Assembly: GCA_934097085.1 (NCBI GenBank)
Contig: CAKONK010000001.1
Coordinates: 73,845-137,844, forward strand
Length of the DNA: 64,000 nt
From: an uncultured Bacilli bacterium
GTDB taxonomy: Bacteria; Bacillota_I; Bacilli_A; RF39; UBA660
Reading direction: 5' to 3'
The notes beneath the pieces were generated by a model, which ran no database searches, had not been told where the DNA came from, and was given only the letters and a program-made list of their open reading frames with translations. Shown one piece after another: positions 10,334 to 10,989 of the stretch; within the stretch, counting starts at the first letter, position 1; each line of letters opens with the position of its first letter. A program made the position numbers and the translations under genes.

Positions 10334-10411
10334 TTGACACATTATGGCTTTTATGCTATAATGAGTGCACTGAAGTGGTCCCACCGTTAATCGGAGGGGT
10401 CACTTCTTTTT
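10334..10411 (+). ncRNA. Self-contained mini-RNA unit (consensus promoter + hairpin + U-tract); same family as 26118-26371
   Basis: TTGACA (10334-10339), 17-nt spacer, TGcTATAAT (10357-10362). About 9 nt later comes hairpin GAAGTGGTCCCACCG-TTAAT-CGGAGGGGTCACTTC (10372-10406), then TTTTT. It ends 7 nt from the stop of the convergent pseudogene. Confidence 0.6.
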
Positions 10412-10418
10412 ATTATTT

Positions 10419-10989
10419 TTATAAGTGTATCATTATTATTTTATCTAACCATTGTAATTTTGGTAATTTATATAAAGAATTTATTCTATCATCAATTTCT
10501 AAATCTGTTAGAGTTGAATTTGAAACATCAAATATAAAATTATGTGATTGTTTTTCATGTTTTTCAATAGCATGAAAAAAATGTTTTTCCATTACCATAA
10601 ATCTCCTTTAAATCCCAATACTCACCTCTAAAAAGATAATCAGCAGTTTTTATTCCCTCTGGATAATTTACTCTTGGTAGCATATAAAGTTCTCCACCAA
10701 AAGTATTTTCCAACCATTTTGCAACTTCTTTTTCTTTTTTAGAATATTCAATAACTACATTCTTTCCATCAACTTTGTAATTTTTCCCTTTAAATATAAA
10801 ATATTTGGCATCAAAAATATTATGTGTGTTTGGATTAGCAGTTTCTACAAAATTATTTGTAATATCTTTATATGAACTGGAGTTTATTATTTCTTTTACT
10901 TTTTTTCTTTGAACAAATTTTTGAATATTTAAAGGTACTATTAAATAATTTCCTAATCTATCTAGTCCATTAATGTTTATATCATCGAA
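10419..10989 (-). pseudogene. Decayed paralogue of the 187-aa ORF at 26385-26948 (no start codon, +1 frameshift in a 7-nt homopolymer)
   Basis: Own translation: ..SSSYKDITNNFVETANPNTHNIFDAKYFIFKGKNYKV..EVAKWLENTFGGELYMLP..TADYLFRGEYWDLKEIYGNGKTFF. It then shifts frame at the A7/T7 run (10575-10581) into HAIEKHEKQSHNFIFDVSNS... Both frames align with the 187-aa protein. An in-frame TAA sits immediately upstream and there is no ATG/GTG/TTG start. Confidence 0.6.

Follow-up and report, generated by a model that had tools for sequence, protein, structure and literature searches.

A candidate RNA antidote encoded beside CdiA_C-type toxin genes of gut Bacilli and their phages

The 64,000-nucleotide (nt) stretch of DNA analysed here, referred to throughout as the window, comes from contig CAKONK010000001.1 (assembly GCA_934097085.1, positions 73,845 to 137,844) of an uncultured Bacilli bacterium. 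Synteny and near-identity place it in a gut member of the Bacilli resembling 'Mycoplasma sp. CAG:472'. It is AT-rich and holds two copies of a two-gene module in which a gene for a small RNA (sRNA) converges on a gene for a CdiA_C-type toxin domain (Table 1). In module A, at 26 kilobases (kb), the toxin gene is intact; in module B, at 10 kb, the toxin gene has decayed beside an intact RNA gene. RNA genes of this kind accompany relatives of the toxin well beyond the window and we suggest that the RNA is probably the antidote of the toxin family.

Table 1. Features of the two modules in the window, with the satellite phage loci that carry the RNA.
Feature	Position	Strand	Details or basis
Module A: intact gene for a stand-alone 187-amino-acid (aa) CdiA_C/PD-(D/E)XK toxin	26385–26948	−	Pfam, homologues, AlphaFold2/Foldseek
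Module A: three tandem sRNA genes, convergent with the toxin gene	26118–26371	+	Units 26118–26198, 26203–26286 and 26289–26371
Module A: 87-aa open reading frame (ORF) just past the sRNA array, on the toxin strand	25820–26083	−	Narrow clade only, always syntenic
Module B: CdiA_C-type toxin pseudogene	10419–10989	−	5' truncation of ~62 codons and two 1-nt deletions at 10575–10588; conserved catalytic residues all still encoded
Module B: frameshift site	10575–10588		A7 (ancestral AAAGAAAA), then TG, then T5 (ancestral T6); comparison with loci L014 and L022
Module B: remnant of linker encoding PLNIQKFV	10912–10935	−	Prp-like motif preceding the toxin domain in relatives
Module B: intact sRNA gene	10334–10411	+	Promoter scan, fold, covariance model
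Module B: −35 box of sRNA gene	10334–10339	+	Followed by 17-nt spacer with TG extension
Module B: −10 box of sRNA gene	10357–10362	+	Followed by 9-nt leader
Module B: 35-nt hairpin	10372–10406	+	GAAGUGGUCCCACCG-UUAAU-CGGAGGGGUCACUUC
Module B: T5 run	10407–10411	+	
Degenerate tRNA-Pro relic	10225–10330	−	T-arm partly deleted; directly behind the sRNA promoter; alignment with intact phage tRNA-Pro genes
Satellite loci L131–L133, L136 and L137 (Javan620, 737, 201, 259 and 243)			Hairpin RNA in unannotated DNA

Each RNA unit of module A has its own TTGACA box, an extended −10 promoter (11 of 12 positions, with the TG), a hairpin of 37–38 nt and a T-run. A covariance model seeded with 11 hairpins, none of the 26-kb type, found all three units (39.3, 34.5 and 29.7 bits) and, over the 64-kb window, nothing else credible beyond these and the 10-kb unit. 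One weak match at 3179–3202 on the minus strand (18.4 bits, E = 0.5, GC fraction 0.17) was judged to be due to chance. At the syntenic A-type locus the array consists of one to four units according to the strain, with a period of about 85 nt and a promoter and terminator for each unit (L001–L007, L010–L017 and L124–L128).

Residues 106–177 of the 187-aa protein match CdiA_C (PF18451) at 27.1 bits, just over the cut-off of 26.6. Its relatives score 48–69 bits, and the truncated N-terminal fragment of the pseudogene taken alone, at 15.8 bits, lies under the threshold. A word-indexed homology search returned close relatives only, and an exhaustive HMMER search was needed to obtain 136 representative homologues. 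In many of these the toxin domain, of about 160 aa, is the C-terminal part of a protein of 400–700 aa with Phage_min_cap2 or Phage_Mu_F at the N-terminus; relatives of 480–580 aa carry PF06152 or PF04233. Alignments reveal a PD-(D/E)XK-like pattern, E76...D107...D116-x-K118...Q136, the residues of which are invariant or nearly so. The AlphaFold2 model of the protein has a mean predicted local distance difference test score of 81.6, and a Foldseek search of the PDB with it gave the CdiA-CT of Burkholderia pseudomallei 1026b (4g6v_A) as the top and only probable match (probability 0.94, target-normalized template-modelling score 0.52, but E = 0.058). A sequence search against solved structures gave nothing meaningful and the PADLOC defence models gave no match. 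Polymorphic toxins with a toxin domain C-terminal to MuF have been described, and their toxin domains include cd13442, the tRNase domain of the B. pseudomallei 1026b CdiA-CT (Jamet et al., 2017; PMC5576092); the tRNase activity of the 4g6v relative is as cited there. The window protein is accordingly best described as a predicted CdiA_C/cd13442-type PD-(D/E)XK toxin domain, for which homology suggests nuclease activity and toxicity. Both window copies stand alone, free of a MuF carrier, and the pseudogene keeps only the linker remnant PLNIQKF.

The original prediction, made from the letters of the window, held that the minus-strand translation of 10989–10419 aligns with the 187-aa protein along its whole length. 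The two are indeed paralogous. A tblastn comparison aligned 10600–10923 of the minus strand at 39% identity over 109 aa (E = 9e-15) and, once one base is taken out of the A7 tract, a continuous frame of 189 aa results that is 40% identical to the 187-aa protein over 157 aa (E = 1e-23). For the C-terminal part by itself E is 5e-7, and all of the matching blocks first quoted are present. A single frame change within A7 had been proposed and does restore the alignment, but two indels are actually involved. At this site the syntenic contig L014, from Mycoplasma sp. CAG:472, reads GCATG-AAAGAAAA-TG-TTTTTT, and the GKNIFFHAVEKHEKQ that it encodes is intact. Since this intact orthologue is 2 nt longer there, the window has suffered two separate 1-nt losses, one that left A7 at 10575–10581 (formerly AAAGAAAA) and one that left T5 at 10584–10588 (formerly T6). 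The lack of a start codon and the in-frame TAA just upstream (10990–10992) were also found as described, and no ATG, GTG or TTG occurs in the frame before 10713; the cause is slightly different from that given. Against the intact orthologue in L030 (246 aa), homology breaks off about 62 codons into the gene, and the start codon is missing because these N-terminal codons are gone.

The lesions fall in homopolymer runs, one of these runs differs among strains (T5 or T6), and every catalytic residue is kept. It might be argued from this that the gene is alive and that the frameshift represents a homopolymer sequencing error, phase variation or programmed frameshifting in A7. We give this practically no credence. 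Over 761 nt the window shows 100% identity to each of two independent metagenome assemblies (L018 and L021), and because they carry the same lesions an assembly error is not the explanation. Locus L022, 98.8% identical to the window, has regained one base in the form of T6 yet is out of frame and equally truncated, so that the T5 and T6 states are both out of frame, and about 62 N-terminal codons have been lost together with any start codon or promoter. Sequencing error and phase variation of the A7 tract were rejected on these grounds. The 10-kb protein copy is a genuine, fixed pseudogene, which is the outcome that the strain comparison of tract length had been expected to separate from phase variation. 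The near-invariant residues of the family are all kept in it, and its decay is therefore recent.

The promoter of the module B RNA gene, TTGACA-17-TATAAT, agrees with the consensus at 12 of 12 positions and has the TG extension. The hairpin folds at −19.9 kcal/mol (z = −3.8), and the T-run converges on the pseudogene and ends 7 nt short of its stop codon (10419–10421), much as had been read from the sequence at the outset. Covariance model R1 scores the unit at 58.7 bits in the sense direction versus 24.3 bits in antisense, and the same hairpin sequence accompanies intact toxins in L014, L027, L030 and L106. Relative to the 26-kb units the paired substitutions were exactly those listed earlier, namely C–G to U–A, A–U to G·U and CUGC/GCAG to CCG/CGG. 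The window and L022 differ by two substitutions in the 78-nt RNA unit versus seven differences in about 680 nt of flank, and with these two strain variants selection on the RNA after the death of the toxin is not demonstrable. That an antitoxin has here outlived its toxin fits the data, where antitoxin denotes a putative role, and the intact RNA gene is probably still expressed, as an orphan immunity gene.

A pattern of the bases common to both window hairpin types was scanned against genomes and matched only CAG:472-like Bacilli together with three GC-rich chance sequences. Among the matches, L016 has a single RNA unit and an intact toxin, and the 3' end of its 168-aa ORF overlaps the hairpin. 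We then fetched 98 metagenomic and viral loci encoding toxin relatives at 36–79% identity. In nearly all of them the toxin stop codon is met by a convergent unit of consensus promoter, hairpin and T-run, whether the toxin stands alone or is fused to MuF. A detector blind to RNA sequence, which allowed the promoter no more than two mismatches and demanded a hairpin at least as stable as −14 kcal/mol and four or more Ts, found convergent units next to 43 of the 66 non-redundant toxin 3' ends; in the remainder of the same loci the rate was 0.006 per equivalent window. Typically the last 1–47 nt of the RNA overlap the end of the toxin ORF. No small protein family is conserved across the groups of loci. 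Rfam 15 places no family on the hairpins at the gathering threshold, nor at E ≤ 1 on representative loci that include the streptococcal ones. The freely searchable literature yielded no earlier description of the RNA partner or of its core sequences, and an RNA partner is not mentioned by Jamet et al. (PMC5576092). As judged from sequence, the promoter–hairpin–terminator RNA is the only family-wide conserved partner of the CdiA_C-type toxin and was previously undescribed.

The original prediction took the paired changes between the two window loci as a sign of selection on RNA structure, and the wider comparison bears this out. In an alignment of 32 distinct sequences 95.4% of the pair cells are canonical, compared with 31–57% when the partners are slid, and in eight of the 15 pairs both partners change. 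The alignment has a covariation score of 0.458 versus 0.249 for shuffles, and none of 500 shuffles reaches 0.458. Because this alignment was fitted to the model and holds few clades, a tally of pairs anchored on GGUC was added; the anchored script also served for family-wide covariation because covariance model R2 at its default filters misses those hairpin types that diverge the most. Among 26 distinct hairpins of about 11 types, each folded independently to its minimum free energy, 15 of 16 consecutive positions (−8 to +7) are paired in 88–100% of cases. Several pair types occur at each position, while U·G (20 of 26) and then C–G (24 of 26) are almost fixed. A fixed G·U/U·G/C–G core sits amid extensive stem covariation, and is followed in the B type by CCCAC...GAGGG. 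For 22 of 25 hairpins folding favours the sense strand (means of −20.2 versus −14.2 kcal/mol), and G·U pairs make up 67 of 375 on the sRNA strand versus six of 308 on the opposite strand. The structure is specific to the sRNA strand and is under selection. A simple terminator scan did not flag the hairpins, presumably because of an internal A × A mismatch; thermodynamic folding does show them. A likeness of the hairpin to the acceptor and T-arms of tRNA-Pro, seen by eye only, was unsupported by any score and we make no claim of it.

Constraint extends to the sequence itself. In nine distinct units of the B type the −35 and −10 boxes are invariant (none of 12 columns varies), nine of the 17 spacer columns vary and seven different leaders are found. 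Only two of the 35 hairpin columns vary, each between A and G opposite a U. The toxins linked to these units are 63–79% identical to the reference protein P0152, and the CCCAC...GAGGG core is common to toxins that are 36–40% identical. Similar toxins may carry different types of hairpin, a sign of reshuffling.

The association reaches tractable organisms. MuF and CdiA_C occur together in 42 records of Streptococcus phages, among them Javan prophages of S. pyogenes MGAS5005, MGAS315 and Manfredo, prophages of S. equi, S. dysgalactiae, S. agalactiae, S. suis and S. oralis, and phages P9 and 315.6. In the streptococcal phages a convergent promoter and a hairpin RNA of about 70 nt occupy the unannotated gap 3' of the MuF-toxin gene. 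An 88-aa ORF lies downstream; it is found in 128 phages versus 42 with the toxin, and is therefore a general phage gene rather than a toxin-specific one.

The RNA is also found where the toxin is not. The streptococcal RNA is present in 47 records, about 17 of which are satellite phages of roughly 10 kb. Of the satellites examined, Javan737, Javan201, Javan259 and Javan243 give no toxin match in the fetched DNA and Javan620 keeps only the last 26 toxin codons. The outer stems of the streptococcal copies are wholly different and still complementary around the conserved core. In L026–L029, L037 and L039 a complete unit of the GUGCUG type, with no remnant of a toxin, lies about 240 nt upstream of a module of the CCCAC type; four variants of it exist, and their substitutions are almost all switches from wobble to Watson–Crick pairs. 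RNA without toxin is thus a recurrent state, in gut metagenome-assembled genomes (MAGs) and in streptococcal satellite phages. Two hairpins may also share one transcript, as in L040 (2989–3068, minus strand; GUGCUG type and then CCCAC type) and L136 (around 440–575), an arrangement reminiscent of immunity-gene arrays.

A hairpin with a T-run is a canonical intrinsic terminator, and the units lie between convergent or adjacent transcription units; in the streptococcal phages they lie between the MuF gene and the scaffold genes. The RNA might be no neutraliser at all. It could terminate or insulate transcription in both directions, or regulate neighbouring phage genes as an sRNA, and merely travel with the cassette. 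We consider this improbable. A consensus promoter is kept at a fixed distance in all clades, the T-run and the G·U-dependent structure lie on the strand opposite the toxin, and neither tandem self-contained units nor orphans in unrelated contexts would be expected of a terminator. The RNA, moreover, goes with the toxin domain rather than with MuF, since it is present beside stand-alone toxins and the 88-aa phage gene is three times more widespread.

Our preferred reading, to which we assign a probability of roughly 0.45, is that the RNA is a trans-acting neutraliser of the toxin, most likely acting on the protein in a type III-like manner. The module would comprise two genes, one for a stand-alone CdiA_C/cd13442 nuclease toxin domain and one for a hairpin RNA of about 45–50 nt, predicted to be transcribed constitutively from a strong promoter of its own. 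This second gene converges on the toxin gene and abuts or overlaps its 3' end, and the RNA would bind the toxin protein through the conserved G·U/U·G/C–G core of its helix, the convergent overlap serving to keep toxin and antidote genetically linked. Action in trans is suggested because orphan and satellite copies occur without a toxin; transcripts with two hairpins of two types and the reshuffling of hairpin types among similar toxins were counted in the same sense, and the tandem arrays of one to four units would suit the dosage of an antidote. Besides this action in trans, three considerations favour the protein as the target. Firstly, the sequence of the hairpin and not only its structure is frozen, and discrete types exist. 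Secondly, repression of an mRNA would poorly serve a toxin that lies within an essential head protein. Thirdly, a toxin delivered as protein can be countered only at the protein level.

Type I-like control is the main rival and the simplest explanation for a convergent, overlapping arrangement. Here, the sRNA would pair with the 3' end or 3' untranslated region (UTR) of the toxin mRNA, leading to RNase III cleavage or decay in addition to transcriptional interference, and the targets of orphan copies would be the mRNAs of incoming phages with the same hairpin type. The arrangement is universally convergent, and with an overlap that is typically 1–47 nt the RNA is bound to be complementary to the 3' end or UTR of the toxin mRNA. 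The toxin strand has no T-run after the hairpin, and the toxin mRNA must therefore contain the antisense sequence; the hairpin is weak on that strand, which would leave the target accessible. Nevertheless, the hairpin is near-invariant while leader, spacer and toxin diverge, and a non-Watson–Crick core is conserved. A cis-antisense RNA needs neither constraint on the hairpin sequence nor a conserved core, because both partners mutate together. Repressing the mRNA of the MuF head protein would harm the phage, antisense RNA would give no protection against a toxin delivered as protein, and the outer stems of the orphan and satellite copies are unlike those of the phage copies. On balance, we regard type I-like control as somewhat unlikely, although it and type III-like neutralization are not mutually exclusive.

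Several points count against a protein-level antidote. A conserved convergent 3' overlap is what a cis-antisense RNA of type I predicts and is not required of an RNA that purely binds protein. The strict detector rejected 23 of the 66 loci; visibly weaker units are present at several of these, and some may lack the RNA. The near-identity of the hairpins could stem in part from recent horizontal spread of the cassette rather than from purifying selection. For the A-type toxin subtype, the 87-aa ORF of module A might encode a protein immunity factor: it has a strong ribosome-binding site and always accompanies the A-type toxin. We saw no convincing promoter of its own, homologues stand beside no other member of the toxin family, and it could alternatively be part of the downstream 158-aa/GGDEF operon. 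Finally, the antidote role is a prediction from sequence analysis.

The closest solved relative of the toxin is a tRNase, the hairpin forms a helix of 15–17 bp with a 3' tail, and tRNA genes adjoin the module in phages. It could be argued on this basis that the nuclease is not inhibited by the RNA but uses it as a substrate, cofactor or activator, for instance as a cleaved tRNA-like pseudo-substrate or as a required RNA subunit. We find this highly improbable, since orphan RNAs without an enzyme and multi-copy constitutive expression fit an antidote better, and the Rfam tRNA model has no match on the hairpins at E ≤ 1. 

A more elaborate form of the antidote idea, which we advance tentatively, is an RNA-based type of immunity that would be widespread and so far undescribed. 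In it the hairpin RNA would directly neutralize a polymorphic nuclease toxin borne by temperate phages on the MuF head protein, its helix with the fixed G·U/U·G core serving as a pseudo-substrate that mimics the tRNA target of the toxin. Lysogens, host chromosomes and satellite phages alike would keep orphan copies for protection against, or interference with, phages that carry such a toxin.

The surroundings of module B bear on its origin. The tRNA-Pro relic is homologous to intact tRNA-Pro(UGG) genes that stand back to back with the sRNA promoter in phage loci encoding MuF toxins (L040, L047, L049, L053, L106, L108 and L109). The sequence PLNIQKF(A/V)QRK precedes the toxin domain in the pseudogene and in relatives (P0146–P0151 and P0029), and resembles the site MLxx(D/N)LQ(F/L)F'A(S/H)KK at which the protease Prp acts in ribosomal protein L27 and in the capsid and scaffold proteins of phage 80alpha (PMC9405229). 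The resemblance suggests that Prp may release the toxin domain from an N-terminal extension or from its MuF carrier by cleavage in this linker. The 10-kb module adjoins chromosomal tRNA-Arg and tRNA-Pro genes. Because of the Prp-like linker, the tRNA-Pro relic and this position, the evidence points to descent of the module from a phage cassette of toxin, sRNA and tRNA-Pro. The phage-borne tRNAs beside the toxin may be functionally linked to it, given its tRNase homology.

Other tRNA genes flank the module elsewhere, namely Gly(ACC) beside Pro in L108 (3145–3298), Ser(UGA) in L043 (3180–3264) and Trp(CCA) in L120 (2467–2540). In L014 (6500–7374) and also in L030 a third module, absent from the window, lies between tRNA-Pro and the B-type module; it encodes a distant paralogue of 262 aa (28% identity) with a convergent promoter and a hairpin RNA of different shape. 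In the window an insert of about 3.3 kb splits a gene for a P-type cation ATPase into a C-terminal part (11045–12757) and an N-terminal part (16101–16949). The insert carries genes for a large serine recombinase (12779–14383) and an AAA_14/DUF4143 ATPase (14725–15981), and could be an excisable intervening element. The same arrangement of the whole region (11045–16949) is present in the independent assembly L018.

The module shares several properties with type III toxin–antitoxin systems (ToxIN, CptIN, TenpIN; AvcID): a protein toxin paired with a small structured non-coding RNA, possible tandem repeats (here one to four), an association with phages or prophages, the absence of a protein antitoxin and, as proposed here, inhibition at the protein level. 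The toxin, however, has the CdiA_C/PD-(D/E)XK fold and not that of ToxN/AbiQ, as indicated by Pfam and Foldseek. In type III systems the antitoxin repeats lie upstream on the same strand, are co-transcribed with the toxin gene and are processed by the toxin, whereas here the RNA genes converge on the toxin 3' end and have their own promoter and terminator. The toxin is also found as the C-terminal domain of phage MuF structural proteins.

Convergent antisense RNAs that overlap the 3' end of the toxin gene are known from the type I systems par/Fst (RNAI–RNAII), txpA–RatA and bsrG–SR4, which resemble our module in having a small RNA with its own promoter that converges on the toxin 3' end and in sharing the terminator hairpin. 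Type I toxins are small hydrophobic membrane peptides of fewer than 60 aa, although SymE and RalR are nucleases; the present toxin is a soluble nuclease domain of 160–190 aa, in some cases within a virion protein of 480–580 aa. The RNA is likewise distinct, with about 50 nt, a sequence-conserved non-Watson–Crick core and common orphans. In its toxin fold, its gene order and the separate promoter of each unit the RNA–toxin module departs from defining features of both types, although its mode of action may resemble theirs. The toxin domain family (PF18451/cd13442) is that of the CdiA-CT/CdiI pair of B. pseudomallei 1026b (PDB 4g6v) and of the MuF toxins, with which the phage relatives also share the MuF N-terminal carrier and the occurrence of orphan 'immunity' genes and arrays (PMC5576092). 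The difference from polymorphic toxin/immunity pairs is that the neighbour conserved here is an RNA, and that no downstream immunity protein is conserved.

Polymorphic toxins are assumed to be neutralized by cognate immunity proteins. For the MuF phage toxins this assumption rests on small downstream ORFs (PMC5576092). The RNA described here appears instead to be a new structured family that partners a polymorphic phage toxin domain, and no other partner of the CdiA_C-type domain is conserved in gut Bacilli MAGs, in their phages or in the 42 streptococcal phage records. The idea can be tested in genetically tractable streptococci, and the transcript may already be present in existing transcriptomes. 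Should the RNA prove to be the antidote, an RNA-based mode of immunity would be added to the biology of polymorphic toxins, a new family of structured RNAs with several specificity types would be defined, and the orphan hairpin genes of host chromosomes and satellite phages would find an explanation.

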